A stretch of 64,000 bases of DNA from Nitrospinota bacterium (GCA_029881495.1 JAOUMJ010000004.1:28476-92475), one strand, 5' to 3'. Shown: positions 15,937 to 61,331, counted from the first letter of the stretch. The notes: generated by a model not told the origin, from the sequence alone. A program made the numbers and translations.

Positions 15937-15939
15937 CCG

Positions 15940-19038: not shown

Positions 19039-19110
19039 TTTGAACTAGCGGCGCAATACACGCTTAATGGCGGTATGAGATCGACTTGACCATGTGAAGA
19101 GAGGATTCTG

Positions 19111-21408: not shown

Positions 21409-21455
21409 CCGGATGCCGGTTTTTAAAAAGTGTAGAATGGGTGAGCAGCGAAGAG

Positions 21456-22289: not shown

Positions 22290-22305
22290 GGGTGTGGGAG
22301 CGGGT

Positions 22306-28609: not shown

Positions 28610-28815
28610 AAGGATAACACGCGATTTTCAGAATGTCTTTTTCGCGATGCATTTTAAATATGAGGGAAGGGTCATCCATGTTTTTTCCCGGTTTTTGGAA
28701 CATCGCCTCGCCAATCCCGGGGAGTTACCCAAACCTGCAATATGGTTTAAACTTGTTATACTTGTTTGCAACGGCTTATCCAGCCGGTATGGATCGAAAT
28801 AGGGAGCATTCGATT

Positions 28816-30957
28816 ATGGATGACAGGTTATTACGGAGATTGGCGGGCGTCAGGCCGGCATATATTGTTCTTGTGTCGGTGCTTGCCTCTGTCAGCCTCA
28901 CCCTGGTAATTGTCTCCATATGCAGTCTCTATTTTTACGGTCGCGTTACTTTCGAGTTTATCGCTACCGGGATCATCGCCTCTTTCTTTGTGGCTTTCTT
29001 GGTCGTCATGTTTCTGCAAAAAATTACGAATAGCATTATGGAAGTGAAGCTCCAGTCGGATTCCATGATCCAATCCCTGGAGAAAAATATCTCCAATATC
29101 ATCCAAAAGAGCAATGACGTCTTCTACAGGACCAACCTGAAGGGGGAGATAGTCTGGATATCTCAATCGGTTCAAAAGGTGATGGGATATTCTCCGGAAG
29201 AGTTGATCGGGAAGGATATTTCCAGTTTTTACGTAAATCCGGAAGAGCGATTGAGGCTCCAGGAGTTGCTGAGGGAGAATGGCGGATTCGTAAAGAATTT
29301 TGAGGCAAAACTCCGGAAGAAGGATGGGAGCGAGATATGGCTCTCAACGGACACCGGTTATTATTACGACGAACACGGGAGCATCGCCGGAGTTGAAGGG
29401 GAGACCAAGGATGTAACCGAAAAGAAGGAGATCGAAAACGCCCTGAGGCTCTCCGAGGAAAAGTACAGAACGCTTATCGAAAATATACAGGAGGGGATAT
29501 TCCTCCTTCAGGAAGGGAAGTTCGTCTACGTAAATGACAGGTTTGCCGAAATGACCGGCTACAAGGTAGCCGAGATAATTGGAAAGGAGTTTGCCCCTTT
29601 CGTGGCCCCGGAAGACAGGAACAAGGTTTTCGAGCGGTACAAAAGGAGGTTGCAGGGGGAAGACGTTCCAAAGGAGTACGAGTTCCGGCTCCTGCATAAG
29701 GATGGCAATGCGCGGGTGGTTGTGCATATGCTGGTGAGTCTCACCCAGTATCAGGGAAAACTGGCAACCACCGGTACGATCACCAATGTATCCGAAAAGC
29801 GGAAGATGGAAACTCTCTATCAAAAAGCCCAAAAACTCGAATCTGTGGGATTGCTGGCTGGCGGCATTGCCCATGATTTCAACAACCTCCTCACCTCGAT
29901 ACTGGGCGGTCTCTCACTGCTGAAGCTTACTATCGACAAGAGCGGAGATGACGAGGATTTGCAGATAGTCACGGAATCTATAAACGCCACTAAGCGCGCG
30001 AAAGACCTCGCAAGACAGCTCCTTTCATTTTCGAAGGGGTCGGAGCCTGTAAAGAAGCTGTTAAGCCTCAAAGATCTCCTGATGGACTGCGTGTCGTTTT
30101 CTCTTCGGGGTTCGTTATCGAATTATTCGTTCGATATTGTCGACGACCTCTGGAACGTGGAGGCCGATGAAGGACAGCTTAACCAGGTATTCAATAATTT
30201 GATAATCAACGCGGAACAGTCAATGCCGGACGGCGGCGTGATAGATGTCTGCGCCTACAATATAAACATATCGTCGCACAGCGGGATACCTCTTCCACCA
30301 GGGAAGTATGTTCAGATTACGGTTGAGGATGCCGGCCACGGAATACCGGATGAATATCTCGACAAGATATTCGATCCCTACTTCACCAGTAAACAGAAGG
30401 GGAGCGGGCTCGGCCTTGCGTCAGCATATTCGATAATCAGGAACCACGGCGGATTTATCGATGTTGAATCCGATCTCGGAAAGGGGAGCAGGTTCCATGT
30501 ATTCGTTCCGGCCAGCGATTTGGCGATAAATGAATACGCCTCTTCTCCAGCGCTTGTGAAAGGCCATGGGAGGGTTCTTGTTATGGATGATGAGGATGTC
30601 GTAAGGAATGTTCTCGGCAGGATGTTAAAGAGGCTGGGGTACGAGACGGAGTATGCCGTCGACGGCGAAGAGGCCGTCAGCATTTACAGGCAAAACCTCG
30701 AAAACGGCACCCGGTTTAAGGCGATAATTACCGATCTCACGATACCCGGCGGGATGGGGGGAGAAAAGGTCTTGAAAATCCTCAAGGAGGCCGACCCTGA
30801 GATCAAGGCGATAGCAACAAGCGGCTACGCGCTTGATCCCATAATGTCGGATTATCCCAAATACGGATTTGCCGGAATTCTTCAAAAACCTTTTGAAATG
30901 GAAAACCTAAGCGTGGTACTGGAAAAGGTGACGGCGGAGAACGGCGGGAAATCATAA
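28816..30957 (+). CDS. hybrid sensor histidine kinase (membrane N-terminus, two PAS, HisKA, HATPase_c, receiver)
   Basis: H-box GIAHDFNNLLTSILGG; N/G boxes (NNLIINAEQSM, DAGHGIPDEYLDKIF, GSGLGLASAYS); C-terminal REC (VLVMDDE ... ITDLTIPGGMGG). ATG 28816 chosen by RBS; ORF track start is 28633. Confidence 0.85.
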   Translation: MDDRLLRRLAGVRPAYIVLVSVLASVSLTLVIVSICSLYFYGRVTFEFIATGIIASFFVAFLVVMFLQKITNSIMEVKLQSDSMIQSLEKNISNIIQKSNDVFYRTNLKGEIVWISQSVQKVMGYSPEELIGKDISSFYVNPEERLRLQELLRENGGFVKNFEAKLRKKDGSEIWLSTDTGYYYDEHGSIAGVEGETKDVTEKKEIENALRLSEEKYRTLIENIQEGIFLLQEGKFVYVNDRFAEMTGYKVAEIIGKEFAPFVAPEDRNKVFERYKRRLQGEDVPKEYEFRLLHKDGNARVVVHMLVSLTQYQGKLATTGTITNVSEKRKMETLYQKAQKLESVGLLAGGIAHDFNNLLTSILGGLSLLKLTIDKSGDDEDLQIVTESINATKRAKDLARQLLSFSKGSEPVKKLLSLKDLLMDCVSFSLRGSLSNYSFDIVDDLWNVEADEGQLNQVFNNLIINAEQSMPDGGVIDVCAYNINISSHSGIPLPPGKYVQITVEDAGHGIPDEYLDKIFDPYFTSKQKGSGLGLASAYSIIRNHGGFIDVESDLGKGSRFHVFVPASDLAINEYASSPALVKGHGRVLVMDDEDVVRNVLGRMLKRLGYETEYAVDGEEAVSIYRQNLENGTRFKAIITDLTIPGGMGGEKVLKILKEADPEIKAIATSGYALDPIMSDYPKYGFAGILQKPFEMENLSVVLEKVTAENGGKS

Positions 30958-35194: not shown

Positions 35195-36211
35195 ATGTCC
35201 GAATTGATCGAACCGCAGGGAGAATCGCCGGCAGATGTCGTCATTGATGAAAGCCTCAGGCCGAAATCGATCGACGATTACGTCGGGCAACAGAGGATAA
35301 AGGAAAACCTCAAGATATCGATAGCCGCCACGCGCAAACGTGGCGAAGCGCTCGACCACATCCTTTTTTACGGACCTCCCGGCCTCGGAAAGACCACTCT
35401 CGCCTACATAATGGCAAACGAGCTTGAAGTGAACATAAGGGCCACCTCCGGCCCTGCCATAGAAAAAGCGGGAGACCTCGCCGCAATACTTACCAATATC
35501 GAAGAGAACGAGATAGTCTTTATCGACGAGATACACAGGCTTGCCCCGCCGGTGGAGGAGATACTCTATCCCGCCATGGAGGACGGGAATATAGATCTCG
35601 TTATCGGGCAGGGCCCGTCGGCAAGGTCGGTAAAGCTGGAAATCCCGCCATTCACGCTGGTAGGAGCCACAACGCGAGCCGGGCTTTTAACCTCCCCTTT
35701 AAGGGACAGGTTCGGCATTGTTCACCGTCTCGAATTCTATACCGAGGGGGAGCTTGCGCAGATAGTCAAGCGTTCAGCCGGAATCTTAGGCGCTCCTCTC
35801 GACGATGAAGGGGCAAGGGAGATCGCGCGCCGCTCGCGGGGAACCCCCCGCATCGCCAACCGGCTCCTTAGGCGCGTCCGTGATTACGCGGAGGTAAAGG
35901 GTGACGGCAGGGTAACCATGGAGATAGCGGGTCTCGCGCTCCGCATGATAGATATCGACGAAATGGGATTCGACAGAATGGATAGAATGCTTCTCCTTGC
36001 GATAATAGAAAAGTTCGGTGGAGGTCCGGTAGGGCTGGATACGCTTGCCGCCGCCATCAACGAGGAGAAGGATACGATAGAGGATGTCCTGGAGCCGTAT
36101 CTCATCCAGGAGGGATTTCTCCAGAGGACACCTCGCGGAAGGGTCGCCTGTGAAGCGGCATATCGTCACCTGAAAAAAAATCCCCCTTCACGACAAAAAG
36201 AGATCTTTTAG
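35195..36211 (+). CDS. ruvB: Holliday junction DNA helicase RuvB
   Basis: Walker [12 protein letters not shown], Walker [11 protein letters not shown], sensor and C-terminal winged helix; ATG at 35195 (MSELIEPQ). Confidence 0.92.
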
Positions 36212-36446
36212 GGCTACTCGAAAGAAGCCCTTTTCGACAGAGCCGTCCGGGGAAAACAGCCTCTCTCCCCCAACGAAATCTAAAAAGAGACTGTAACGGA
36301 TGTTGCGACACTCGTATTTCCGTTACAGACAAATATAGTTATTTTGTATATAATTTTCCAATCTGCGCTTTAGCACAGTTTAAACCAGCGGTGTCTCTCT
36401 TTTTGCGGTTTTAAGCTGGTTTTATTTTATTTATGGGGAGAGCTAA

Positions 36447-38444
36447 ATGAGTTCGTATTTTAAGAGTTCTGAATCTTGTGTCAGGTTTTTGATGCGTGTA
36501 AATATTTTGATTTTATCTCTGTTCATTAGTGCTGTCTTTAATCCATCGCCTGCGTATGCGGAAGTGCAGGTGGTTGCGTCGAACGATCTCTTCGATATGG
36601 ACATAGTCGACCTCATGGAACTTGCTGTCACCACCGCGTCGAGAAAATCCGAGAAGCTTGTGCATACCTCCTCGGCAGTATATGTAATTACATCCGAGGC
36701 TATCAGGAACAGCGGAGCGACGACCATACCCGAAGCGCTGAGACTTGCGCCCGGGCTTCAGGTAGCGAGAATGGGATCGCACAGCTGGGCGATAACGTCG
36801 CGCGGTTTCAACAATGCATACGCAAACAAGCTCCTCGTATTGATAGACGGGCGGAGCGTATACACACCTCTCTTTGCGGGGGTCTACTGGGATGAGCAGG
36901 ATACCCTGATGGAGGATATCGACAGGATAGAGGTGGTCCGAGGTCCCGGCGGCACCATGTGGGGGGCGAACGCCGTGAACGGGGTGATAAACATCATCAC
37001 GAAAAAGGCAAACGAAACGGAGGGGACACTCACCTATATCGGAGGGGGCGATTTTGAAAAGAAATTTGCCGGTTTAAGGTATGGCGGGAAGCTGGGTGAA
37101 AACAGCTCGTACCGCATGTTCACGAAATATGACGACAGAGGCTCACTGGTAAAAAATGGTACTGATGAAAACATAAACGACGATTGGGATACCGGGAGAT
37201 TCGGATTCAGGATAGATTCAGAACCTTCCAGTACGAACACGTTCATGTTGCAGGGTGACATCTTCAAAAAGAGGAATGATTACACCTCAGACTCGCAGAC
37301 ACTGAAGTACGGCGGGGATATCGTCGGAAATTGGAGCCATACCATCTCGGAGAAATCAAAGACCGATTTGCAGTTTTATTACGACAGGACCGAAATGTTC
37401 GACGAGGATTCCTCGAGGATAATCGAAACGCTGGATCTTGATTTTCAGCACCACCTCTCTGCGGGTGACAGGCATGATTTGAGCTGGGGAGCCGGGATGA
37501 GAAACATCAGGTTTGATAATGAAAATACCTCCCCCCCCATTTTCTACGATCCGGCGAAGCGGGAGGACAGCCTGACAAACGTTTTTTTGCAGGACAAGAT
37601 AGCCGTTTCCCCCGGCCTGTTTTACTGGACTGTCGGGGCAAAGGTTGAGAACAATCCCTACACGGGGGTTGAGTACCAGCCGAATACCAGGTTCCTTTAC
37701 ACACCGGGTGAGAAGAACGTCTTTTGGGGTGCGGTATCAAGGGCTACCAAAACCCCCACGCGCGCCGACATGGACATGGGGATGTATAACTCAAAAGGGG
37801 GGCTTTTCCTAGTTCCGAAGAAGGATATGGCGTCGGAAATTCTCGTCGCCTACGAGCTTGGCCACCGCGCGATGCCGTCGGAAAAACTTTCATTTGATAC
37901 CACCATCTTCTACAACGACTACGACAAACTTGAAACTACCGAATGCGGATTTGCCGGCGGTTCCATGCAGTGCTACCAGGACAACCAGATGTACGGAACC
38001 ACCCACGGATTTGAAGCGGCCGCGAATTGGAGCCCGGTCCATGACTGGGTGCTCACCGCTACCTACACGTTCCTTGAGATGGATATGAAACTTCTCGATG
38101 GTTCCGAATCGATATACGCCACCGACGAGATGGAGTGGGAAAACCCCAAACAGCAGGCAAGGCTCAACTCCTATATCAAGCTCCCCTATAACATGCAGTT
38201 TGATTTGGCGGTATTTCATTCCGCCCCCGTAAGTTTCCAGCTATACACCGGCGAATACAAGCTGGCAGGCTACACGCGCGTAGATACCAGGCTGTCATGG
38301 AACGCGGGGAACGGATTTGTCACCTCGCTTTTTGTACAGGACGTGCTTAACGAATCAGGGCGCGGGGAATATAAAGGGGCAAGTTACGATCCATCTACTG
38401 ACGTGGAAAGAAATGTATATCTGAAAGTTTCGTTTGAAAAGTAA
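36447..38444 (+). CDS. TonB-dependent outer membrane receptor
   Basis: Signal peptide; plug domain motifs (VYVITSEAIRNSGATTIPEALRLAPGL, NKLLVLIDGRSVYTP, IEVVRGPGGTMWGANAVNGVINIITKK); ~600-aa barrel. RBS ggggagag before ATG. Confidence 0.85.
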   Translation: MSSYFKSSESCVRFLMRVNILILSLFISAVFNPSPAYAEVQVVASNDLFDMDIVDLMELAVTTASRKSEKLVHTSSAVYVITSEAIRNSGATTIPEALRLAPGLQVARMGSHSWAITSRGFNNAYANKLLVLIDGRSVYTPLFAGVYWDEQDTLMEDIDRIEVVRGPGGTMWGANAVNGVINIITKKANETEGTLTYIGGGDFEKKFAGLRYGGKLGENSSYRMFTKYDDRGSLVKNGTDENINDDWDTGRFGFRIDSEPSSTNTFMLQGDIFKKRNDYTSDSQTLKYGGDIVGNWSHTISEKSKTDLQFYYDRTEMFDEDSSRIIETLDLDFQHHLSAGDRHDLSWGAGMRNIRFDNENTSPPIFYDPAKREDSLTNVFLQDKIAVSPGLFYWTVGAKVENNPYTGVEYQPNTRFLYTPGEKNVFWGAVSRATKTPTRADMDMGMYNSKGGLFLVPKKDMASEILVAYELGHRAMPSEKLSFDTTIFYNDYDKLETTECGFAGGSMQCYQDNQMYGTTHGFEAAANWSPVHDWVLTATYTFLEMDMKLLDGSESIYATDEMEWENPKQQARLNSYIKLPYNMQFDLAVFHSAPVSFQLYTGEYKLAGYTRVDTRLSWNAGNGFVTSLFVQDVLNESGRGEYKGASYDPSTDVERNVYLKVSFEK

Positions 38445-38468
38445 ACCGGGCAGGGGAGCATCGGAATT

Positions 38469-39023
38469 TTGAAAAGAAAGAACGGAGAGATACATGTCAT
38501 CGCGGCGGTAATCTCCCTACTTCTCTGCTCATCCGCCTTTTCAAGTGAGAAGGTATTCACCGAGTACCAGGTAAAATCCGTTTTCATATACAACTTCGCG
38601 AAGTTCGTCGACTGGCCCGAACAGGCATTCAGTAGCGAGGCCTCCCCTGTAAACGTATGCGTGCTTGGCGAAGACCCTTTCGGCAACGAGATGGACCTCC
38701 TCACAAAAAAATCGGCCAGGGGGAGAGGATTCGACGTTCTCAGGTTCAGCAAGTTCAAGGATAAGGAGGAGCTGAAATCGTGCCACCTCCTCTTTATCAG
38801 TAAATCGGAAGAAAGCCGTATCGGCTCGATAATCGAGTCCCTTTCGGGATTCGGTGTCTTAACCATATCCGATGTGGAAGGTTTCATGGATTCCGGGGGG
38901 ATCATTGAGTTCACGATGAGGGAGAACAAGGTTCGCTTCGCCGTAAATCTGAAGGCCTCCGAACAGGCAGGGATAAGAATAAGCGCGAAGCTTCTGAAAC
39001 TTGCCGAGGCGGTGAAAAAATAG
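38469..39023 (+). CDS. YfiR-like DUF4154 periplasmic protein (putative)
   Basis: Signal peptide; conserved N-terminal EYQVKSVFIYNFAKFVDWPE-type segment; TTG start with GGGGAG RBS; stop 3 nt before kinase start. Confidence 0.55.
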   Translation: MKRKNGEIHVIAAVISLLLCSSAFSSEKVFTEYQVKSVFIYNFAKFVDWPEQAFSSEASPVNVCVLGEDPFGNEMDLLTKKSARGRGFDVLRFSKFKDKEELKSCHLLFISKSEESRIGSIIESLSGFGVLTISDVEGFMDSGGIIEFTMRENKVRFAVNLKASEQAGIRISAKLLKLAEAVKK

Positions 39024-39025
39024 CC

Positions 39026-41296
39026 ATGCCGAAAACCAGGGACTTCACGATAAAGCAGAAGCTGGGGCTCATCATCGGGGTGACCACTGTTGTGGCGCTC
39101 CTTCTCGCTTCGGTGTCGTTCATCCTCTACCAGAGATACATGCTAAGGCAGACCATAGTGCAGGATCTCTCTTCGCTAGCGGAGATCACGGGAAACAACA
39201 ACGCCGCTTCACTCGCGTTCATGGACACCGGTTCGGCAAGGGATACGCTCGGTGGCCTGAGCGCCAGGCCGTCTATCGAAGGGGCCGCTATATACTCCGC
39301 TGACGGCGAGCTGTTCGTGAAATATATAAAGATGAACGCGGATTTTGACGTTCCTGAATACCCAGGCGAGGACGGGCAGAGCTTTTCAGGCGGGAGGCTT
39401 ATCCTTGCAAGGGGGATAATATTCGACGGTGAGAGGATAGGTACCTTTTTCCTGGCGGCAAACATGGACGAGCTGAACGCACTGACAATAAAAAGTTCGA
39501 TGACAGTTCTGCTGGTAATGTTTATTTCGTTGATAGCCTCAATGATCGTCTCTTCAAGGCTTCAGGGGCTTATTTCAAATCCGGTAGCGGCCCTTTCAAG
39601 CCTCGCCATATCGGTTTCTGAGAGCAAGGATTATTCCGTCCGCGCAAAAAGCGACAGCCGCGACGAATTCGGCGACCTCATGAACGCGTTTAACGAGATG
39701 CTTGAACAGATCCAGTCAAGGGATCAAAAGCTGAGGGAACATGGCAAAGAACTGGAAAAGGAAGTTGAGGAGCGTACAAGAGAGTTGAACATCGCCAATA
39801 CGAATCTAAACGAAGAACTATTGGACCGCAGAAAGGCGGAACAGGCGCTTGCCCGCACGCTAAGCGAACTGGAAACGATAATGAACGCAAATCCCGACAT
39901 CCTTTACGTCGTAAACATGGAAGGGAAACTGATCAAATGGAACAACGGACTGGCAATGCTCACTGGGCTGGGGCCGGACAAGCTGATGCTACGGCCGATA
40001 ACCGAATTCATTCATGAAGATGACCGGGATATCGTCATGAGGAGGGTAAAGGATGTATTCCAAAATGGGGAGGCAACGGTCGAAGCGAGATTCTTCGACA
40101 GGAACGGCGACCTTTTCCCTTACTACTGCAACGGAATTGTTCTCAGGAACGAAAAGGGGGAAGTGACCGGCTTTACCGGAACGGGGCGCGACATCTCCAT
40201 ACTGAAGGAGACAGAGCTAGAACTGCGAAGGGCAAAGGATAGCGCCGAGGAGGCCACAAGGCTAAAGGACAAGTTCGTATCGCTAGTTTCCCACGACCTC
40301 AAAGGGCCTCTTGGAAGTCTTTTGGGATTTCTGGAGCTTATCAAAAGGGACTCTGCGAATGGCATCTCTGCGGAATCGGGAAAGTACCTAAGCATCGCCC
40401 TAGATTCCGGCGAGAAAATGCTCACATTGATAGATGATCTCCTCAACATCAGCAGGCTCAAGACCGGAAACATCATGCCGCACTACACATTCAACGATCT
40501 TCACATTATCATGTTGAAGATTCTTTCCGGCCTCGCCTATCCCGCGTCCCTGAAGGGTGTGACAATACAGAACGACGTAAGACCCGGCATCCGCGTATAT
40601 GCCGATAAACAGCTTCTGCAGGAGGTTTTGCAAAACCTTATTTCAAATGCGGTGAAGTTCTGCAATCAAGGGGACACTATCAGGATATTCCTTCCGTCAG
40701 GAAACGGGGGGCAAATTTCCGTTGCCGACACCGGGCAGGGGATCGCCCCCGAAAGGATAGGTAAACTCTTTAATTACGAAGAGAAGACCTCCACTATAGG
40801 CACCGCAGGTGAGACCGGAACGGGGCTGGGGCTCCCGCTTTCAATGGACATCATAAAGGCGCACAAGGGGAACATAGCCATAAGTTCCGAAGTTGGCATA
40901 GGGAGCACTTTCACCGTTTCGCTCCCGATAGTGAAGCCTGTCATTCTCCTTGTGGAAGACGACATAAACCTGATGGAACTCGTAAAGTTCATGCTTGAAG
41001 GGCTGGATGTGTTTATTATGGAAGCGAGGGACGGACAGGAAGCACTCGATATTCTCAGCGAGAAAACCCCTCATCTCATTCTCTCCGACATAATGATGCC
41101 GCGAGTGGATGGTATGGAACTGCTCGAAAAGGTGAGAAATACCGAACTCCTTAAAGATATCCCTTTTATAGTAATGACAACTTCCAGGGAGCCTGAAGTA
41201 TCGGAGAGAGCTTTTCAGCTTGGAGCGGACGACTTCCTGGTAAAACCGGTCACGCAAAACGAAATGATCCCGCGTATCAAGAGATTTATTTTATAG
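39026..41296 (+). CDS. hybrid sensor histidine kinase (periplasmic sensor, HAMP, PAS, HisKA, HATPase_c, receiver)
   Basis: Two TM helices flanking a ~130-aa periplasmic domain; H-box SLVSHDLKGPL; G boxes DTGQGIAPE, GTGLGLPLSMDI; REC ILLVEDD ... ILSDIMMPRVDG. Confidence 0.85.
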   Translation: MPKTRDFTIKQKLGLIIGVTTVVALLLASVSFILYQRYMLRQTIVQDLSSLAEITGNNNAASLAFMDTGSARDTLGGLSARPSIEGAAIYSADGELFVKYIKMNADFDVPEYPGEDGQSFSGGRLILARGIIFDGERIGTFFLAANMDELNALTIKSSMTVLLVMFISLIASMIVSSRLQGLISNPVAALSSLAISVSESKDYSVRAKSDSRDEFGDLMNAFNEMLEQIQSRDQKLREHGKELEKEVEERTRELNIANTNLNEELLDRRKAEQALARTLSELETIMNANPDILYVVNMEGKLIKWNNGLAMLTGLGPDKLMLRPITEFIHEDDRDIVMRRVKDVFQNGEATVEARFFDRNGDLFPYYCNGIVLRNEKGEVTGFTGTGRDISILKETELELRRAKDSAEEATRLKDKFVSLVSHDLKGPLGSLLGFLELIKRDSANGISAESGKYLSIALDSGEKMLTLIDDLLNISRLKTGNIMPHYTFNDLHIIMLKILSGLAYPASLKGVTIQNDVRPGIRVYADKQLLQEVLQNLISNAVKFCNQGDTIRIFLPSGNGGQISVADTGQGIAPERIGKLFNYEEKTSTIGTAGETGTGLGLPLSMDIIKAHKGNIAISSEVGIGSTFTVSLPIVKPVILLVEDDINLMELVKFMLEGLDVFIMEARDGQEALDILSEKTPHLILSDIMMPRVDGMELLEKVRNTELLKDIPFIVMTTSREPEVSERAFQLGADDFLVKPVTQNEMIPRIKRFIL

Positions 41297-41714
41297 GCCG
41301 CTACAGGCGGTTGTACTTCGGTTCACATTTTTCGATTCCTTTGTTCGATAAACGTACAGCAATCCAGATATTTTGCGTATTGACGGTACCGGAGTTCAGA
41401 AATTATGAAACTTCCAGATATTGTTAAGCTTAAGCCTTATGAAACCAAATCCTTGCATGTGGTAAAATGTACTTGGTTGGAACTTCCATCCGAAATATGC
41501 GCACTAAACGGTGGAAATTCCCTAAAGGGGAGAAATCAGATTTGTTGCGAAATGGAACGTTTTTTTTACTGATTTTCTGCATCATGGAAGCTACGAAAGG
41601 GAGAAGCTGATCTCTCTGGATGAAAGCGACGGCATAAAAAACCGTCAATTTCCCGTATGGGTGTACGTAATGCAAGGAGTAGCCTGAGACAGATCAGGAT
41701 CTTTCGGTGTAAAT

Positions 41715-44700
41715 ATGACCTCAAAGCCGCAATCAGGGATAGCAAAGCTGATTTTTTCCCCTTGGGGAGCCGTATTGGTATGGAGTGTCTTTATCGCCAT
41801 CTCCCTTCTGTGGAACATCAGCCACCATAGGAAAGACACCCTGGAAATGGCGGTCAAGGAAGCAACCATCCACTTCAACAAGGATCAGGCTTTCAGGTAC
41901 TGGGTTACTTCGCATGGCGGCGTTTACGTCCCTGTGGATGAAAGAACACCTCCAAATCCTCTTCTTTCGCATGTGCCGGAAAGGGATATCGAAACCAAAT
42001 CGGGAAAAAAACTTACCCTGATGAATCCCGCTTACGCCTTGCGCCAGTTGATGAACGATTACAGCGACAAATACGGGATAAAAGGGCGCATTACGAGTCT
42101 GAAACTCCTTAACCCGGCAAACGCTCCCGACGAGTGGGAAAAGAAAGCGCTAAAGTCCTTCGAGAATGGCGCGGCTGAAGCGGTTGAATTCACCAAGATC
42201 GACGGCGTTCCGTTTCTGAGGTTCATGCGTCCGATGATCACCGAAGAGGGATGTCTTAAATGTCACGCGCATCAAGGGTACAAGGTCGGCGATGTGAGGG
42301 GTGGGGTCGGGGTAATCCTTCCGGTACAGCCGTATATGGAAATAGAGAAAAGCGAAGTTGCATCAATAGCCATCTCGCACAACCTGTTCTGGATAATCGG
42401 GCTTTTTGCCATCGGGTTCGTATCGAGGCTGAATAAAAAGAGGATACAGGAAAAGAGCGAGGCCGAACAGGCAGTTTTCCTTTTCAGGACCCTTCTTGAC
42501 CGCTCCAGCGACGCCATCACCGTTGTTGATCCCGACAACGGAAGGTTCCTCGATTTCAATGAAAAGTTCTGCGCTAATCTCGGTTACGGACGCCATGAGA
42601 TCATGGGGAAGAGCATTATTGATATCGATTCAACCATCAAGGATATCTACGAGTGGAACAAGCGAATTGAAGAGCTGGAGAAACATGAAGAGCTTGTTTT
42701 TGAGAGTGTGCATGTCCGGAAGGATGGCTACAAATTTCCGGTAGAGGTCAGCGTAAAGCTTGTTCGGGAAAAAGGGAAGAGGTTTATCATTGGAGTCACC
42801 AGGGATATTACGGAGAGAAAGCGCGCGGAAGAGGCGCTCTTGCGGAGCGAGGAAAAATACAGGCTGTTGGTGGAGAGCGGTCTCCTGATCGCGTGGGAAG
42901 CGAAGTTCCCTTCGCGGCAGTTCACCTTTGTAAGCTCGCATGCCGGAAAGCTCACAGGCTACAGCGAAAAGGAGTGGTGCAAGCAGGATTTCTGGGTGAA
43001 CCATCTTTATACCGAAGACAGGGAGAAGGCAATAAAACAGAGCGGGGAGCTTGTCAAAAAAGGTGAGGGTCACACACTCGAATATCGGATGATCGCGAAG
43101 GACGGCAAGGTTATCTGGTTCAAGGATATGGTGAGCGTCATAAAGGATTCGGCCTCGGCGCCTGTCGGCCTGCGCGGGTTCCTTACCGATATAACAGAAA
43201 GAAAAAACATGGAAGATCTTGCCAAGAGCAGGGGGGAATCCCTCGCCAGAGCGCAGGAGATAGCGCACATAGGGAGCTGGAGCTGGGATGTTCAAACAGG
43301 CCATCTCTACTGGTCCGACGAAAATTTCAGGCTCTTCGGATTCTCTCCCCAGGAATTCGAGCCTACGTATGAAAAGTTCCTTGAAATTTTACATCCATCC
43401 GATAGAGAGAGCGTGATCCAGGCCGTCAATCTCACGCTGGAGGGGGGCGGGAATTACGATATTGAACATAGGATCGTCCGTCCCGACGGCACGGTAAGGC
43501 TGATACATGGGCAGGGGAGGGTTGAATACGGGAGGGACGGAACGCCTGCAAGGATGTATGGCACGGGACACGATATCACCGATCAGCGGAAATCCGAGGA
43601 GACCATGCGTCTGCAGAGCGAGATGATGGCGAACATGGGGGAGGGGGTTCTGCTGATAAAGGCCGACAACATGAAAATAGTTCACGCGAATTCCAGACTT
43701 GAGAAGATGTTCGGCTATGGTGAGGGGGAGCTTTTGGACAAAGAGGTCGCCATACTTAACGCGCCCACGGAACGCGATCCGAAGGAGACCGCGAGGGGAA
43801 TAGTCACTCTGCTGCAGGAAAAAGGTTTCTGGCAGGGGGAGGTTCACAATATCAAAAAGGACGGTTCCACGTTCTGGTGTTTTGCGTCAATCGCGGGGTT
43901 CGACCACCAGGAGTACGGGAAGGTCTGGATATCGGTGCATGCCGACATAACCGAAAACAAACGCGCAGAGGAAGAAAAACTTCTTTTCAGGAGGCTTGTC
44001 AACAGATCTAACGACATGATCCTTCTGGTCGACCCGGAGAGCGCGCTCATTCTCGATATAAACGACAAGGGGTGCGAGCACCTCGGATATGACCGTGAAG
44101 AGTTGATGAAGATGCGGGTAATAGATTTCGACGCAACCGTAAGTGAAGTTGAAGCGTGGCAGGCACACACTGCGGAGCTGGAAGCTAAGGATTCACTCCT
44201 CTTTGAAAGCGTTCATATAAGAAAAGACGGCGCCCGGATACCGGTAGAGATAAACGTAAAGCTGGTTTCGGAGAGCGGCAGAAGCTTTATAATCGGCGTG
44301 GTTCGGGATATATCCGACAGAAAGCGCGCCGAAGAAGAGCTGAGAAACAGCCAGAAGATACTCGCCCGCGCCCAGAAGATAGCAAATATTGGAAACTGGA
44401 CATGGGATGTGCCGGATCAGAAGTTCAGCTGGTCGGATGAGCTCTATCACATACTCGGTTTAAGCGAGAAGAAGGGGAAGGCGGATTACCTGGCGATACT
44501 GGAGACGACCCACCCGGAGGAGAGGGAAGGATTGAAGCGGGCAATTTTCGATGCGCTCGAAGAGAAAAAGCCATGGAACCTTGATCACAGAATAGTTCTT
44601 GAGGATGGGAATATTCGCGTAGTGCATCACCAGGGGGAGGTCACCTTGAACAGCGATGAGGAGGTCCTCCTCATCGAAGGGACGTTGCAGGATATTACCG

Positions 44701-46184
44701 AACGGAAGGAGGCCGAGCGCGCCCTGGAAAAGTCGGAGAGAAATATCAGGGCGATAGTCAAATCGGTCGGAGAAGGGATAGTCGTTGCCAATCGTGATTC
44801 GCGGGTGACATTCGTGAACGGAGAGCTCTGCGAAATTTTCGGCTGTTCCGAAGAGGAGATTATCGGACAGCCGCTCGAAATACTTATGCCGGAGCGTTTC
44901 AGGGAATCTCACAGGACGTCATTCAAGAGATATCTGGAAGGTGGGAAAGCGAGGGTCGTAGGGAAGAGGATCGAACTGGAAGGCCTTCGAAAGGATGGCT
45001 CGGAGTTCCCGCTTGAACTGAGGATCGAGGAGTCGGTATGGGATCACCAGGAGAAATTCTTCGTAGGCGCGATAAGGGATATTACTGAAAGCAGGCGAAT
45101 CTTCGAGGAGCTCCGAAAGGCGAAGGAAGAGGCTGAAGGGGCCACAAAACTGAAGGACAAGTTTGTGTCGATGGTCTCGCACGACCTCAAGGGGCCGCTT
45201 GGGAACATGATGGGATACCTGAAACTGCTGTTGAACGAGCAGGCCGAGCCGCTGGGGGAAGGGGCAAATGTCATCCTCGGGTCCGCGCTGAAATGCGGCG
45301 AGGGGATGATAAGCCTGATAGAAGAACTCCTGAATATCTCCCGGCTTAAGACCGGTAAGCTGGTTCCGCAGATGAGATTCCACGATCTGTATGTTGTCTC
45401 ATTGAGAGCGCTTTCGGGTCTCAGCTATCTCGCCCTCCAGAAAGGGATCGAAATTGTTAACGAAATAAAGCCCGGTGCGAGGGTCTTCGGAGACGAGCAG
45501 CTCCTTTCGGAGGTTGTCGCTAACGTCCTTTCTAACTCGATAAAATTCAGCGGGCGCGACAGCAGGATAACGATATCCCACTCCGCAGGAGAGAAGACAC
45601 TCCTTGCCATCAAGGATAACGGAGTGGGAATTCCGCCCGAAAAAATTGAATTCCTGTTTGATTATGAGGTGAAGACATCGACCGTCGGAACCGCCGGGGA
45701 GACCGGCACCGGCCTCGGTCTCCCGCTGGCAATGGATATCGTCAAGGCGCATGGGGGGGATATATCGGTGGATTCAAAGCCGGATGCCGGGAGCAGCTTC
45801 ACTATTGCGCTTCCGGTCGTGACGCCGAGGATCCTCGTGGCGGATGACGATGAAGGTGTACTCCATATCATCAGAACGATCCTTGCGGATGAGTCGGTGG
45901 AGATAATCGAAGCGCTCGACGGCAAGGAGGCGATGGAGCTCATCAGGGAGAAGGCTCCGCACTTTATAATCGCCGATTTCCACATGCCTGAGATCGACGG
46001 CCTAAAGCTCCTCGAAAGGGTGAAAAAAGAGAAGTCGATCAAGAACGCGGTATTCTTTATCATGACAAGCGACAAGGATACAGAGATAAAGGAGAGGGCG
46101 TTCCAGCTTGGGGCGGATGATTTTCTAAACAAACCGATATTGAAGGGGGACCTCCTCCCCAGGGTGAGGAGATATATAATTTAG
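41715..46184 (+). CDS. giant multi-PAS hybrid sensor histidine kinase with N-terminal CxxCH heme-type periplasmic domain
   Basis: 1489 aa; periplasmic N-domain with CLKCH motif (near 42252-42266); TM helix; at least five PAS/PAC modules; H-box SMVSHDLKGPL; HATPase_c; C-terminal REC. Confidence 0.85.
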   Translation: MTSKPQSGIAKLIFSPWGAVLVWSVFIAISLLWNISHHRKDTLEMAVKEATIHFNKDQAFRYWVTSHGGVYVPVDERTPPNPLLSHVPERDIETKSGKKLTLMNPAYALRQLMNDYSDKYGIKGRITSLKLLNPANAPDEWEKKALKSFENGAAEAVEFTKIDGVPFLRFMRPMITEEGCLKCHAHQGYKVGDVRGGVGVILPVQPYMEIEKSEVASIAISHNLFWIIGLFAIGFVSRLNKKRIQEKSEAEQAVFLFRTLLDRSSDAITVVDPDNGRFLDFNEKFCANLGYGRHEIMGKSIIDIDSTIKDIYEWNKRIEELEKHEELVFESVHVRKDGYKFPVEVSVKLVREKGKRFIIGVTRDITERKRAEEALLRSEEKYRLLVESGLLIAWEAKFPSRQFTFVSSHAGKLTGYSEKEWCKQDFWVNHLYTEDREKAIKQSGELVKKGEGHTLEYRMIAKDGKVIWFKDMVSVIKDSASAPVGLRGFLTDITERKNMEDLAKSRGESLARAQEIAHIGSWSWDVQTGHLYWSDENFRLFGFSPQEFEPTYEKFLEILHPSDRESVIQAVNLTLEGGGNYDIEHRIVRPDGTVRLIHGQGRVEYGRDGTPARMYGTGHDITDQRKSEETMRLQSEMMANMGEGVLLIKADNMKIVHANSRLEKMFGYGEGELLDKEVAILNAPTERDPKETARGIVTLLQEKGFWQGEVHNIKKDGSTFWCFASIAGFDHQEYGKVWISVHADITENKRAEEEKLLFRRLVNRSNDMILLVDPESALILDINDKGCEHLGYDREELMKMRVIDFDATVSEVEAWQAHTAELEAKDSLLFESVHIRKDGARIPVEINVKLVSESGRSFIIGVVRDISDRKRAEEELRNSQKILARAQKIANIGNWTWDVPDQKFSWSDELYHILGLSEKKGKADYLAILETTHPEEREGLKRAIFDALEEKKPWNLDHRIVLEDGNIRVVHHQGEVTLNSDEEVLLIEGTLQDITERKEAERALEKSERNIRAIVKSVGEGIVVANRDSRVTFVNGELCEIFGCSEEEIIGQPLEILMPERFRESHRTSFKRYLEGGKARVVGKRIELEGLRKDGSEFPLELRIEESVWDHQEKFFVGAIRDITESRRIFEELRKAKEEAEGATKLKDKFVSMVSHDLKGPLGNMMGYLKLLLNEQAEPLGEGANVILGSALKCGEGMISLIEELLNISRLKTGKLVPQMRFHDLYVVSLRALSGLSYLALQKGIEIVNEIKPGARVFGDEQLLSEVVANVLSNSIKFSGRDSRITISHSAGEKTLLAIKDNGVGIPPEKIEFLFDYEVKTSTVGTAGETGTGLGLPLAMDIVKAHGGDISVDSKPDAGSSFTIALPVVTPRILVADDDEGVLHIIRTILADESVEIIEALDGKEAMELIREKAPHFIIADFHMPEIDGLKLLERVKKEKSIKNAVFFIMTSDKDTEIKERAFQLGADDFLNKPILKGDLLPRVRRYII

Positions 46185-46304
46185 CTGCCGAGGGTTGCAG
46201 TCCTTTGCTGTTCATAGTCATGGCAGTTCAATCACCTTTGCGGACGCGGGAATGAAAAATATCCAGCGCGATCGGGCGGGAAAAGAGCGTTTGAGTAATC
46301 TCGC

Positions 46305-48116
46305 CTACCTTCCGAAGTGGCGGAACAGTCTTTCTTTTTCGATGTTTATCGCCACCGGCCTTCCATGCGGGCAGGTGTAGGGGAGTTCGGCTCTACCGAG
46401 TTCGGCGACCATCGCGGTTATTTCGTTGAGCGAAAGTGTATCTCCCGCCATGACCGCCGCTCTGCATGCCATGTTTGAAACGAGTCCCGATATCATCGTC
46501 GTGAAATCGGAGTCGCGGTTTCCAGCGATACTCTCGGCGAGTTCGTCGATGAGCGGGACGATATCCTTTCCCGAAAGGATGGCCGGGATCTCCCGGACGA
46601 TGAAAGAGGTGTCGCCGAACTCCTCTATCTTCCATCCCAGGTCGTCGAACGTTTTGAGATGGGCGCGTATGACATCTGCCCGCCCATGTTTTTTGTCTAT
46701 CGTCAGTGGGATAAGTAGCTGTTGCCGCTCTACCTTTTTCTCCTTCAGTCGCTTGAGGAACTTTTCATAAAGTATCCTCTCGTGAACGGTATGCTGATCC
46801 ATTATTACCAGCCTGTTGCCGTCTTCAATGATGAGAAGGGTATCGAACAGCTGACCGACAACTTTCGATTGAGGGGAGAGGACACCATGCACCGGCGAAA
46901 ATACCGGAATCTCCCCAAGGGGGGGGTAATTGCTTCTGTCGTTTTCTCTGAGCGGTTCGCTCCAAAGCTCGAACGATCGTTCAAACCCGGCAGACATCCC
47001 CGTTTCGCGCTTGTTGGCAAGATGAGGCTCCATTTTGGGAGCGGGATAACCGGAGAGCGCCGGGGCGACGTAGTAGTCTGTACCGGCAGTTTGCGCCGCG
47101 ACAGAGTATCCACCTCCACCGGCGTATTTTGAAAGCGACTGCCTGACGCAGGCGATGATGGCGGAAGTAATCCTCCCGGGGTCGGAAAAACGGACTTCGG
47201 CCTTTGTCGGGTGAACATTGACGTCGACTTCATTTACAGGGAGTTCGATAAAGATGAAGATGACCGGCTTTCTGCCGCGCGGGATGAGATCGTCGAACGC
47301 CCTGGCGAGCGACATCCTGATAAGGGGATCCTTCACCGGACGGTTGTTAACGAAAAAATATTGGTCCAGATTTGTTGCCCGGTTGAATTCCGGCTTTCCG
47401 GCGAGGCCTGAGACATGGAGTGTGCCGTCGGCCAATTCCATCTTCACCAGGTTTTCAGAATATTCCGAGCCGAATATCTGGTGAACCCTTTCGAGGAGCG
47501 ACGAGGCGGGGGGGAACTCCATCACCCTCTTTTTCTCCTTTATGAATGTGTACCTGACGGAGGGGGTCGCCAGCGCGGCCTGTATTATCCTTCCGGTGAT
47601 GTGACCCATTTCGGTTGTGTTGGCCCTTGCGAACTTCCTCCTGGCCGGCGTGTTGTAGAAAAGGTTTTCAACAATAGCCTCCGTTCCGCCGATAGGGGGG
47701 CTTTCATGGCTGCTCACGGTTTTGCCGCCGTCGACCACTATTGTCCTTCCGCTCTTTTCGCCGCTCCTTTGTGATGAGAGCGTAAACCGCGAAACGGAAG
47801 CAATCGAGGGGAGCGCCTCGCCACGGAAGCCGTAAGTGCCGATATTGAATATGTCGTCGAGCTCGAATACCTTGCTCGTCCCATGCCTCGCAACCGCCAG
47901 ATGAAGCTCGCCGGAGGGTATCCCCGCGCCGTTGTCCTTTACACGGATCCTCTTCCGTGATAGCGACACCTCCACCTCTATGGAGGTCGCCCCGGAATCG
48001 AGGGAATTTTCGATAAGCTCCTTTATGACGTTTGCGGGCCTCTCGATCACTTCACCAGCCGCTATCTGGCTGGCAAGCTCCGGGGGCATAACTTTTATTT
48101 GACCGCTATTCTCCAT
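46305..48116 (-). CDS. mutL: DNA mismatch repair protein MutL
   Basis: N-terminal IKVMPPELASQIAAGEVIERPANVIKELIENSLDSGA (GHKL ATPase); C-terminal dimerisation domain. ORF track start is 48209; 48116 preferred by N-terminal alignment. Confidence 0.9.
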   Translation of the reverse strand: MENSGQIKVMPPELASQIAAGEVIERPANVIKELIENSLDSGATSIEVEVSLSRKRIRVKDNGAGIPSGELHLAVARHGTSKVFELDDIFNIGTYGFRGEALPSIASVSRFTLSSQRSGEKSGRTIVVDGGKTVSSHESPPIGGTEAIVENLFYNTPARRKFARANTTEMGHITGRIIQAALATPSVRYTFIKEKKRVMEFPPASSLLERVHQIFGSEYSENLVKMELADGTLHVSGLAGKPEFNRATNLDQYFFVNNRPVKDPLIRMSLARAFDDLIPRGRKPVIFIFIELPVNEVDVNVHPTKAEVRFSDPGRITSAIIACVRQSLSKYAGGGGYSVAAQTAGTDYYVAPALSGYPAPKMEPHLANKRETGMSAGFERSFELWSEPLRENDRSNYPPLGEIPVFSPVHGVLSPQSKVVGQLFDTLLIIEDGNRLVIMDQHTVHERILYEKFLKRLKEKKVERQQLLIPLTIDKKHGRADVIRAHLKTFDDLGWKIEEFGDTSFIVREIPAILSGKDIVPLIDELAESIAGNRDSDFTTMISGLVSNMACRAAVMAGDTLSLNEITAMVAELGRAELPYTCPHGRPVAINIEKERLFRHFGR

Positions 48117-58195: not shown

Positions 58196-59200
58196 CTACC
58201 CGATTTTACTTTCTTTCTCTATTCCATGTCTAGGAACAATGCTTGATATCCTGATAGCCTTGTTCCCCCTTACAACACCCGGATATCCCCGGAATTTTTC
58301 TACTTCGCTCACATAGATGGGGAGTTCGTCGGTAATATCCCGTTCCAGCTGTATTATCGACCCCTCTTTGAGATTTATGAAGTCCCTTGTCGACATTGTT
58401 GCTTCTCCCAGTTCCACCTTGATATCTACCTCGGCCTGCGCGAGCCTGTCGCTGAGCCTTGTTACCCATGTAAGGTCGACTTCCAGCTGATCGCTCTGGA
58501 AACCTGCTTTGAGTTTTCCGATGATAGGTTCGATGGTCGAGTATGGAAGACATATCGTCAACGTACCGGCAAACTGATCCATCTCCACTTCGTAAAGGAC
58601 AACCACAACAACGTCCGTGGGGGGGACGATGGCGGCGAACTGCGGATTCACCTCCGAGCGTACAAACTGCATCTGGCATGGGTGAACGGGTTGCCATGCT
58701 TTCTGGGTGTCTCTCAGCATCATGAGAACGACCTTTTTTATTACTCTCTGCTCGATGGCGGTGAAGTCGCGCCCCTCTATCTTCATCTTCGCTTCTCCCG
58801 AGCCGCCGAAGAATGAATCTACAAGCGCGAACGCCATTTTCGATTCGACTACCAGAAGTGCGAATCCTCTGAGGGGATTTATTCGGAAGATGTGAAGGGA
58901 TGCCGGCACCGGCAGGGATTTTATGAATTCGCCGAATTTCACCGTATCGGTTGAGACCGCGCTTACGTCGAGAACTTTCCTGAGGGCCGCCGAGAGGGAG
59001 TTTCTGAAGATACGCGAGAATCTCTGGTTGATGATGTCGAGAGTCGGCATCCTTCCCCTGATGATCCTCTCCTGGCTGGTAAGGTCGTAGGGAACCACGC
59101 CCGAATCGTCGCCGAGGTCATCGGCTTCGGTCTCTATCTCTCCGTCGCTTACGCCTCGTAATAGGGCGTCAACTTCGTCCTGAGAAAGTACCTGACTCAT
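58196..59200 (-). CDS. fliM: flagellar motor switch protein FliM
   Basis: N-terminal LSQDEVDALL CheY-binding motif; 334 aa. Confidence 0.9.
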   Translation of the reverse strand: MSQVLSQDEVDALLRGVSDGEIETEADDLGDDSGVVPYDLTSQERIIRGRMPTLDIINQRFSRIFRNSLSAALRKVLDVSAVSTDTVKFGEFIKSLPVPASLHIFRINPLRGFALLVVESKMAFALVDSFFGGSGEAKMKIEGRDFTAIEQRVIKKVVLMMLRDTQKAWQPVHPCQMQFVRSEVNPQFAAIVPPTDVVVVVLYEVEMDQFAGTLTICLPYSTIEPIIGKLKAGFQSDQLEVDLTWVTRLSDRLAQAEVDIKVELGEATMSTRDFINLKEGSIIQLERDITDELPIYVSEVEKFRGYPGVVRGNKAIRISSIVPRHGIEKESKIG

Positions 59201-59263
59201 ATTTTTTTGGCTCCCAATTCCACTTCCAGCTTTACCGGGGTTATCTTACCCCCAAGTTTGAAG

Positions 59264-59794
59264 CTATTGAATAACAAATTCAACAAAATATACGTTTTTT
59301 ACGACTCCGGTTTTAATCCTTGAATTTATTCTTGTTAGAATCTGCTCTTTGAGCTTGAATTTCCCTTCCACGGTCAATATTTCATCGACTGTCTTGGAAG
59401 AGAGTACCGTTATTACCATATCTTTCACCTGAGGCATCCGGTTTGCCAACTCCTCGGCCACCTTCGGATTGTTAAGCTCAACCTGCATGGTTACCTTCAG
59501 GAAGCGCTTCCCCTCATCCCCTGAAAGGTTGACGATGAAAGGCTCGAAAGCGACCATCTCGCCTAGTTTAAGGGGGTCGTACTGCTCCTGGGCTTCGACC
59601 GCCTGCTTTGACTGGCCTCCGGCCCCTTCCTGCACAGCCGCGTCCTTTTTAATGAAGTTGGAATAGATCAGGAATCCGCCTACGCCGAGAAGTGTCAGAA
59701 GGAGAACGATTATGACAATAAGCAGTACCTTGCTTTTACCTTTAGCCGGTTTTTCTCCACCAGACTCTTCATCCATATCTTCTTCAATAGCCAT
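59264..59794 (-). CDS. fliL: flagellar basal body-associated protein FliL
   Basis: 176 aa; single N-terminal TM helix and periplasmic domain; between motB and fliM. Confidence 0.75.
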   Translation of the reverse strand: MAIEEDMDEESGGEKPAKGKSKVLLIVIIVLLLTLLGVGGFLIYSNFIKKDAAVQEGAGGQSKQAVEAQEQYDPLKLGEMVAFEPFIVNLSGDEGKRFLKVTMQVELNNPKVAEELANRMPQVKDMVITVLSSKTVDEILTVEGKFKLKEQILTRINSRIKTGVVKNVYFVEFVIQ

Positions 59795-59811
59795 CAGGCA
59801 ACCTCCTAAAC

Positions 59812-60621
59812 TTAAAAAGAATCCTTTTCGAATTGTTTTATCACAATTTCAACCCGTCTGTTGTATTTCCTGTATTTATCGCTAATGTTCTTAACGCGAG
59901 GCTTGTTTGAAGAGTAGCCCTTCGCCTCCATCCTCATAGTATCTATTAAGCCGGTCGACATAAAGTAGTTATATACGGAGAGGGCCCTGGCGGAGGAAAT
60001 TTCCCAGTTGGAAGGGAAATTTTTCCCCTTTGCCGGAATATCGTCCGTGTGTCCCTCAATACTTATGTTGTTTTTCGAGATGGAGAGAATGCCGGCGATC
60101 CTGTTTAGAATCGGTTCAAGCGATTTTTTTATTTCGACGCTCCCCTTGTCGAACATCGCGTCATCCGGGATCGATAGTGCCACATCTTCGCCTCGCTTGA
60201 TCACCTCGACGCCGCTCCGCTCTATAGTGATTAAAAGCGTCTGAGCCTCTTTTTCGAGAAGTTTGCGGGATTCGGCTATCTCCTGGTCGTAGGTGATCAC
60301 CTCTTTCAATTCGTCCCAGCCTAGTGAATCGGGCTTGAAGTTCGGGACGACATCCATAGCGGAGGAGCGGGAGCTTTGCGTAAGGTTCAGTGCGCCAGCC
60401 GCGCCGGAGAAAACATTAAACATCTCCTTTATCACCTTGTCGTCCATTGATGACATTGAAATGAGCAGAACGAAAAAGGTGATAAGAAGCTGAAGGAGAT
60501 CGGAGAAGGTGACCATCCACGCATCCTTGTCAGGTCCTGCTTCTTCTGTTTCTTCATCCTTTTTTCCGCTTTGCCAGTCGGTGATTTTGGAGTGTTCGGT
60601 TCCCTTTTCCTGTTCGCCCAT
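59812..60621 (-). CDS. motB: flagellar motor stator protein MotB
   Basis: TM helix with conserved Asp (WMVTFSDLLQLLITFF); C-terminal OmpA-like peptidoglycan-binding domain (SNWEISSARALSV, NRRVEIVI). Confidence 0.85.
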   Translation of the reverse strand: MGEQEKGTEHSKITDWQSGKKDEETEEAGPDKDAWMVTFSDLLQLLITFFVLLISMSSMDDKVIKEMFNVFSGAAGALNLTQSSRSSAMDVVPNFKPDSLGWDELKEVITYDQEIAESRKLLEKEAQTLLITIERSGVEVIKRGEDVALSIPDDAMFDKGSVEIKKSLEPILNRIAGILSISKNNISIEGHTDDIPAKGKNFPSNWEISSARALSVYNYFMSTGLIDTMRMEAKGYSSNKPRVKNISDKYRKYNRRVEIVIKQFEKDSF

Positions 60622-61331
60622 TATGTCAGCCTCTGTTTTTTAAGAACTATTTCGATCCTGTCCTTGAACTTTTCCCTTGTGGCGGTATTACCGCCGAAAA
60701 TGGGACGGCTGGAACCATATCCCGATACCGAGATCCTTCTCTCTTTTATTCTTTTGGTGCTTATAAGGAATTGTGCGGCGCTTCCCCCTCTGGCGATGGA
60801 GAGTATCTCCTCGTTTGGGAAATAGCCCCCCTTGTGCCCACCCTGCGACGCGTGCCCTATCAGGTTTATTTCACCGCTTATCGATACGAGTAGCGGGATT
60901 ATCCTGGTTATTATTTCCGTGGCCTTCGGCTTGAGCTCCGCCTTCCCTTTGTCAAACGCGAGGTCGCCGGAAAGGATAAGTACTACTCCGTCTTTCCCCA
61001 GATTCAGGATTACTTCATCTGCGATATCCTTTTCAAGGCTGAATTTTTCAAGTTTGCGAATGAATTCCATGATGTTGTATTCCCTTGATGATAACTCCGA
61101 CGAGGGGGGTACAGTGTTGCTCCCCTTGCTGGTTCCTGGTGAAAGTCCGCCGGGGAGGATACCTACCGTTCCGAGGAGGGAGCCGAGCGCCTTTCGCGTG
61201 CGGTTGTCGTCCTTTACCGCCAGTGAATTCAGAACGATGAAAAAAGCGAGCAGCACCATATTGAGCGTGGTGAAGAGAACGGTGGTTGAATCACCGCGTT
61301 GATTGAAGAAGGTATTGGAGAGAATTTTCAT
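60621..61331 (-). CDS. MotB-like OmpA-domain protein, second paralog (apparently lacking conserved Asp)
   Basis: TM helix TTVLFTTLNMVLLAFFIVL with no Asp at the expected position; C-terminal OmpA-like region (GYGSSRPI, RIEIVL). Overlaps motA and motB ends. Confidence 0.55.
   Translation of the reverse strand: MKILSNTFFNQRGDSTTVLFTTLNMVLLAFFIVLNSLAVKDDNRTRKALGSLLGTVGILPGGLSPGTSKGSNTVPPSSELSSREYNIMEFIRKLEKFSLEKDIADEVILNLGKDGVVLILSGDLAFDKGKAELKPKATEIITRIIPLLVSISGEINLIGHASQGGHKGGYFPNEEILSIARGGSAAQFLISTKRIKERRISVSGYGSSRPIFGGNTATREKFKDRIEIVLKKQRLT

Follow-up and report, generated by a model that had tools for sequence, protein, structure and literature searches.

Two adjacent hybrid histidine kinases of a Nitrospinota bacterium are old paralogs built on one family-wide cassette with exchanged sensors

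The genes of interest, here called kinase A and kinase B, are neighbours in a 64 kb stretch of a Nitrospinota metagenome-assembled genome (GCA_029881495.1, JAOUMJ010000004.1; the whole stretch is called the window, and coordinates without a locus name refer to it). Both lie on the + strand, A (756 amino acids, aa) at 39026–41296 and B (1489 aa) at 41715–46184, and both proteins end, as an original prediction made from the DNA alone had stated, in the series HisKA-HATPase_c-Response_reg. That prediction went further: it regarded the shared segments as near-identical, ascribed them to a local duplication with sensor swapping, thought it probable that the two kinases feed a single downstream partner, and saw in the locus a potential site of recombination or assembly collapse. 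We find instead that A and B are unremarkable: both are hybrid histidine kinases of one lineage-specific family, they are old paralogs, and their similarity reflects common family descent and long divergence, with no recent local duplication.

The kinase-receiver core comprises aa 404–756 of A (40235–41293, + strand) and aa 1137–1489 of B (45123–46181, + strand). The two cores align in the same register with zero gaps, and 173 of 353 positions are identical (49.0%). Identity varies by segment: 56% in HisKA, 42% in the inter-domain spacer, 53% in HATPase and 43% in the receiver (REC), falling to 26.5% in the PAS domain that adjoins the core. A BLASTP comparison of the two proteins extends over 503 aa at 41% identity (E 1e-126). 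At the DNA level, the cores are 58.6% identical when compared in codon register; third positions are 38.5% identical, which is consistent with saturation, and the longest exact run common to both is 11 nt. The span flagged for near-identity, 40200–46184, begins ~35 nt before the A core and includes the gap between the genes as well as the whole of B. What holds of the claim is a homologous, gapless core with similarity far beyond chance; what does not is an alignment "almost residue for residue", given that half of the residues differ.

Local identity between A and B peaks in two places, with 22/30 residues alike at the H-box and 26/30 around the G2 box. Near-identity had been illustrated by two peptide examples, one of them the H-box and the other the G2/ATP-lid box, and the four strings quoted are all found verbatim in the A and B translations. 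The same columns, however, are 80–99% conserved in 153 other cores of the family, with consensus KLKDKFVSLVAHDLRSPL and KTSTVGTAGERGTGLGLPL; the quoted motifs are family consensus. More generally, 139 of the 173 identities (80%) match the residue that is the family consensus at that position. The gapless register is likewise family-wide, with nearly all homologs aligning across positions 1–352 without indels.

The background against which 49.0% is to be read was obtained from two core searches, which yielded 155 full-length cores of a cassette, HisKA-HATPase-REC, of fixed length (~353 aa). Pairwise core identity within this family has a median of 42.9% and a 90th percentile of 47.7%. The A core is 42–54% identical to its top database matches (mostly from Nitrospinota), the B core up to 47% identical to its own. 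A third family member in the same genome, paralog D (P0451, MDH5541815.1; a 592-aa hybrid kinase with an accession 43 below that of A, from the same read set), has a core 45.5% identical to A and 45.2% to B, with the A–B value only marginally above these. Comparisons outside the family give much lower figures: 28–30% for the A or B core against kinase E of the same genome, ~29% in a partial alignment against the third hybrid kinase of the window, and 23–30%, with many gaps, against generic hybrid kinases that carry the CHASE8-HAMP sensor of A. The A–B similarity is clearly raised over generic, non-family kinases and barely raised over its own subfamily. The prediction had itself named mere family-level similarity as the outcome that would speak against it; this is what we find relative to the subfamily (45% for paralog D), and not relative to the other kinases (28–30%).

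The gene for paralog D lies outside the window, about 43 genes from A (L016, 3654–5432), where it adjoins a non-hybrid dCache kinase. The third hybrid kinase of the window (28633–30957) encodes a PAS-PAS-HisKA-HATPase-REC protein of 774 aa that falls outside the A/B cassette subfamily.

Neighbour-joining trees with bootstrapping (about 350 columns) do not group A with B. A joins its ortholog P0291 in 100/100 bootstraps, and the two are joined by P0007 in 80/100; a sister relationship of the A lineage and B appears in only 2–3/100 with the full core, 8–12/100 with the kinase half and 0/100 with the receiver half. From other genomes, 13 proteins equal or exceed B in identity to A (no outside protein comes as close to B as A does), and by bit score the best match of A is P0002 (389), with B second (383). 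Both kinases share more family-rare residues with outsiders than with each other: 12 for A with P0007 and 13 for B with P0058. The P0291 core shares 79% of its residues with A and 50% with B, which dates the A/B split to long before that speciation. Taken together, A and B are probably old paralogs of a Nitrospinota-centred subfamily, onto whose cassette input modules have been grafted many times.

Several points weigh against this reading. Firstly, the best non-self match of B is A, which scores 385 bits (next best, 349) and is 49% identical (elsewhere 47% at most). Secondly, the two kinases have 8 family-rare residues in common, where 3.1 +/- 2.0 would be expected for equally similar pairs, and the best kinase-half tree places both in a five-member clade. 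Thirdly, the material has its own constraints: sampling is incomplete, the protein search having scored only the 8000 candidates with the most words in common; the placement of B in the trees is unstable; and the trees contain no cores of B orthologs, the sole one found (at locus L013, from a relative present in the same metagenome) ending after 588 aa. A search for such cores with the B sensor domain returned, among the matches listed, only proteins of <=455 aa, none with a complete HisKA-HATPase-REC cassette.

The best match of B, the excess of rare residues and the kinase-half clade leave room for an ancient tandem duplication, in which the cassette would have been copied between the A lineage and B before the window organism and that of L013 parted, a new sensor attached, and the B copy (notably its receiver) evolved faster, so that B no longer groups with A. 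The position of the two genes, adjacent on one strand in an arrangement conserved in L013, fits such a history too, as does an adjacent sister pair of cassette kinases (K1 and K2) in another Nitrospinia genome. The low sister support (2–3/100 on the full core, 0/100 on the receiver half) argues the other way, together with the closer ties of A to 13 foreign proteins and to P0007, the larger numbers of rare residues shared with outsiders, and the near-equal similarity (45%) of paralog D some 43 genes off. On balance, we regard an ancient A–B duplication as possible but unlikely.

The adjacent pair just mentioned, in Nitrospinia bacterium OFTM173 (L003), served as a positive control. With a core identity of 56% and sister grouping in 73/100 bootstraps, the pair looks like a genuine local duplication. 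It resembles A and B in belonging to the same cassette subfamily (45–47% identity to the A core) and in consisting of neighbouring genes; it differs in that both of its kinases share one sensor type and group as sisters, while A and B do neither. The L003 genes (5118–11588) are convergent, encode dCache-HAMP-PAS hybrid kinases, and are followed by an ODP-GGDEF gene.

Gene conversion, or another form of partial homogenisation keeping patches of the two cores alike, might be read into the patchy identity, but this is highest in the H-box and G2 box, exactly where the motifs conserved throughout the family lie, and the nucleotide statistics (no exact run beyond 11 nt, third positions at 38.5%, no tract of raised identity) led us to reject it as very improbable. 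We give practically no credence to a recent local duplication with near-identical, recombination- or collapse-prone cores and one common partner: the local identity at the H-box and G2-box region is all that speaks for it, it is refuted by the nucleotide comparison, and the 49% protein identity, the consensus nature of the quoted motifs, the A ortholog at only 50% identity to B, the receivers at 43% and the agreement of independent assemblies all tell against it.

That agreement was established by direct comparison. Two assemblies, one from ENA (contig of 281.5 kb) and one from Logan (SRR7132271), each match the window at 99.979%, gap-free across 9,738 nt, and an NCBI/JGI contig of 130.5 kb likewise carries the genes; the structure of the locus is the same across independent assemblies. 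With no exact run longer than 11 nt, recombination or collapse between the two cores is not a realistic concern. Gene calls at the locus differ in their start codons: B is 1489 aa long in the NCBI and Logan versions and 1469 aa in those of ENA and JGI, and the start of the receptor gene that opens the locus (36447) is called so as to give 665, 650 or 624 aa. Both A and B are already in GenBank under generic names only: "response regulator" for A (MDH5541858) and "PAS domain S-box protein" for B (MDH5541859).

The sensors and the cassette have separate histories. Among the best 150 relatives of the CHASE8-HAMP region of A, one only—the ortholog P0291—carries the cassette of A. The other sensor homologs examined (40–48% identical) are BarA-like "SHEIRTPMN" kinases, often with a histidine-phosphotransfer (Hpt) domain, and their cores are 23–30% identical to that of A. 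Homologs of the heme-Cache domain of B, at 50–62% identity, occur in Nitrospirota, Chloroflexota, Desulfobulbia and Vibrio, and their fusion partners there are GGDEF, PAS or HisKA. Conversely, the same cassette is found behind many other inputs: REC-PAS (P0002 and P0005), dCache-HAMP-PAS (L003), HAMP alone (P0007), and GAF or PAS only (other matches). One of the L003 kinases, K1, aligns with A from the second transmembrane (TM) segment and HAMP through REC at 40% identity, with a dCache rather than a CHASE8 domain in its periplasmic portion. Sensor swapping is thus seen directly, both in sensor homologs of A that carry another class of kinase and in a HAMP-PAS-core unit placed behind dCache. 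Of the predicted "local duplication with sensor swapping", the common cassette and the differing inputs (CHASE8-HAMP-PAS in A, heme-c Cache plus seven PAS units in B) are confirmed, and the duplication is not, for the reasons of identity and topology given above. One cassette with swapped sensors is a true description of the family, not of a local event at the A/B locus.

The genes for P0005 and P0002, which are among the closest core relatives of A, lie in two other Nitrospinota metagenome-assembled genomes (L014, 3301–7821, and L015, 3146–7665). The two are orthologs with the architecture REC-PAS-HisKA-HATPase-REC, and the operon order is the same in each genome: UvrB, a PAS kinase, a response regulator of 147 aa, and then P0005 or P0002.

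All catalytic signatures are intact in A and B, which are by this evidence hybrid sensor histidine kinases. Both have the H-box SHDLKGP, with the phospho-accepting histidine at H423 in A and H1156 in B (PF00512, E 6e-14 and 4e-12, respectively). PF02518 is matched in both, with N-boxes NLISNAVKF (A) and NVLSNSIKF (B), G1 boxes DTGQGI and DNGVGI, and the G2 box GTGLGLP in each. PF00072 is matched in both as well, and the receiver residues are D645/D646, D688, T718 and K740 in A, and D1377/D1378, D1421, T1451 and K1473 in B. Judging from these residues, each kinase would autophosphorylate on its H-box histidine (H423; H1156) and pass the phosphoryl group to the aspartate of its own receiver (D688; D1421). 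Beyond the receivers, the path would lead either to an unlinked Hpt protein or response regulator, or nowhere, regulation being wholly intramolecular. In domain order, in the H, N, G1 and G2 boxes and in the receiver DD-D-T-K residues, A and B resemble hybrid kinases of the BarA/ArcB/TorS type (with or without Hpt). They differ from these in their cores, which are only 23–30% identical and align with many gaps, and in having no Hpt domain detectable by Pfam.

The expectation that A and B feed the same downstream partner is not borne out by the locus. Neither an Hpt gene nor a stand-alone receiver gene is encoded anywhere in the 64 kb window. The two receivers, at 43% identity, show no specific relationship to each other inside the family in the receiver-half tree. 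The segment following the acidic pair of a receiver forms helix alpha-1, a major surface of contact with partners, and it differs between the two: INLMELVKFML in A and EGVLHIIRTIL in B. The helix that follows the histidine in the dimerisation and histidine phosphotransfer (DHp) domain is similar in both, GPLGSLLGF in A and GPLGNMMGY in B; in hybrid kinases this surface serves the attached receiver. On the whole, the evidence leans weakly against a downstream partner shared by A and B.

Kinase A is the third gene of a tightly packed set. The first gene (36447–38444, + strand) encodes a TonB-dependent-receptor-like outer-membrane protein of 665 aa (Pfam Plug, E 1.3e-20; MDH5541856, "TonB-dependent receptor"), and the second (38469–39023, + strand) a YfiR/HmsC-like periplasmic protein (DUF4154) of 184 aa that matches the full PF13689 profile (E 3.7e-44; MDH5541857, "YfiR family protein"). 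The spacer between these two genes is 24 nt, and only 2 nt separate the stop codon of the YfiR-like gene from the start codon of A; for this reason the three genes at 36447–41296, an arrangement conserved in L013, very probably form a single operon. The order receptor-like/YfiR-like/A/B as a whole is kept in L013, with protein identities of 57% for the receptor (over its C-terminal 136 aa), 69% for the YfiR-like protein, 77–79% for A and 70–72% for B (over its first 588 aa).

By Pfam, A consists of a TM segment, CHASE8 (aa 40–143; PF17152, E 6.8e-12), a second TM segment, HAMP (aa 181–230; PF00672, E 1.9e-8), PAS (aa 281–392), HisKA, HATPase_c and REC; hydropathy places the two hydrophobic segments that flank the sensor domain at about aa 9–40 and 152–180. 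The set looks like a periplasmic control module of the YfiBNR/HmsCDE type, known from Pseudomonas aeruginosa (YfiN/TpbB with YfiR) and Yersinia (HmsD with HmsC). Two likenesses stand out: A has a periplasmic CHASE8 domain between two TM segments, followed by HAMP, and its gene lies directly 3' of one for a YfiR/HmsC-family periplasmic protein. The periplasmic domain of YfiN is now classed as CHASE8 (PMC8085984), and YfiN is repressed by YfiR in the periplasm (PMC2837407; PMC3375315). By analogy with that repression, A is probably controlled by the YfiR-like protein, with CHASE8 as the point of control. There are also two differences. Firstly, the output of A is PAS-HisKA-HATPase-REC and no GGDEF domain is detected by Pfam, whereas the output of YfiN is GGDEF, which makes cyclic di-GMP (c-di-GMP). 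Secondly, the gene for the outer-membrane partner encodes a Plug-domain TonB-dependent-receptor-like protein and not YfiB, the OmpA/Pal-like outer-membrane lipoprotein that sequesters YfiR in YfiBNR. A YfiB-type gene was not found in the window, whose sole OmpA-family genes are MotB-like (59812–61331).

A scan of reference genomes with the sensor region of A returned only partial relatives (L003 and L004) and distant gammaproteobacterial CHASE8 proteins (L005–L007). When the TonB receptor and its YfiR-like neighbour were compared with these distant CHASE8 loci by tblastn, no match was obtained, and the open reading frame lists of L005 and L007 show no evident arrangement in common with the A locus. 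A scan of metagenomes, for which A had been aligned with its ortholog, found three distant matches only, and no orthologous locus.

Kinase B consists by Pfam of a TM segment, an sCache_heme/Tll0287-like domain (aa 42–203), a second TM segment, seven PAS units (aa 250–1127), HisKA, HATPase_c and REC, and hydropathy likewise places a hydrophobic segment on either side of the N-terminal sensor domain. That domain is a heme-c Cache (DUF3365/Tll0287-like) domain encoded at 41838–42323 on the + strand (PF11845, E 5.2e-22). It holds one CxxCH motif, CLKCH at aa 180–184 (encoded at ~42252–42266), which is kept in the L013 ortholog. DUF3365/Tll0287 domains are Cache domains with covalent heme c, for which CXXCH is defining; those fused to signalling outputs show properties of NO sensors, and a signalling-fused sCache_heme member from Pseudomonas azotoformans binds nitric oxide (NO) tightly and forms no stable O2 complex (bioRxiv 10.64898/2026.02.01.703092). 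B resembles this receptor in its PF11845 domain, its CXXCH motif, its two flanking hydrophobic segments and its signalling fusion ("Cluster 2" of that paper); it differs in that the domain is coupled to seven PAS units and the hybrid kinase cassette. As B fits the signalling-fused heme-Cache class, our best guess is that its sensor is a probable NO/redox sensor, with NO binding predicted by analogy. The seven PAS domains could bring additional inputs. Each PAS unit ends in a DIT(E/D)xK/R motif, seven in all, and within the array (42462–45092) identity reaches 51% between PAS1 and PAS5 (61/120) and 39% between PAS3 and PAS6 (49/125); these identities indicate that the array has expanded by internal duplication of PAS units.

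A and B are separated by 418 nt (41297–41714). The gap contains a promoter-like site at 41439–41468 with an extended -10 element (TGnTAAAAT), ~250 nt upstream of the B start codon. In comparison with L013, a -10-like patch is the sole clearly conserved part of the gap, the rest being about 45% identical. Since this patch coincides with the promoter-like site in an otherwise poorly conserved gap, B is probably transcribed separately, from its own promoter. No terminator-like site was found in the gap, nor did it give any Rfam match; an Rfam scan of 36000–46500 at E <= 1 returned zero matches.

Nitrogen-oxide chemistry is central to the cultivated members of Nitrospinota, which are nitrite oxidisers. 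One could picture the four genes as one functional unit, in which a YfiR-type envelope signal (relayed by phosphotransfer, not c-di-GMP) and an NO/redox signal enter through A and B, and in which the two related cassettes have been kept because they converge on one unlinked phosphorelay. We consider this improbable, and mention it as speculation.

Further genes were noted elsewhere in the window. A flagellar motor cluster on the - strand (58196–62089) comprises FliM, FliL, a MotB-like gene, a second OmpA-family gene and a MotA/ExbB-like gene. In another genome, the family member P0042 lies 3' of a CheY-like receiver gene and a CheX-like gene. The context of P0042 and the flagellar cluster of the window together hint that some cassette members feed motility control. 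At 13714–23556, a TetR regulator gene is followed by genes for an outer-membrane efflux protein, an AcrB-type resistance-nodulation-division (RND) pump, an MMPL/RND-like protein, a LolA-like protein and a 420-aa protein without a Pfam match. Next, at 23963–25240, is a sigma-54 activator gene (AAA+, HTH_8); its Sigma54 AAA+ domain starts at aa 87, and the ~86 residues before it contain no receiver or sensor domain by Pfam.

The significance of these results is chiefly that of a correction. The locus holds no near-identical repeat and poses no assembly or recombination problem, and it illustrates that adjacency combined with common conserved motifs is no proof of recent duplication or of common signalling partners. 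Beyond this, the Nitrospinota cassette—found with CHASE8, dCache, heme-Cache, REC-PAS and GAF inputs—is a clean natural case of modular sensor swapping. Within it, A appears to be an instance of the YfiR/CHASE8 input coupled to a phosphorelay where a diguanylate cyclase would be usual, YfiB being replaced by a TonB-dependent receptor, and B extends the NO-sensing heme-Cache family, a recent description, by a large hybrid kinase with many PAS units.

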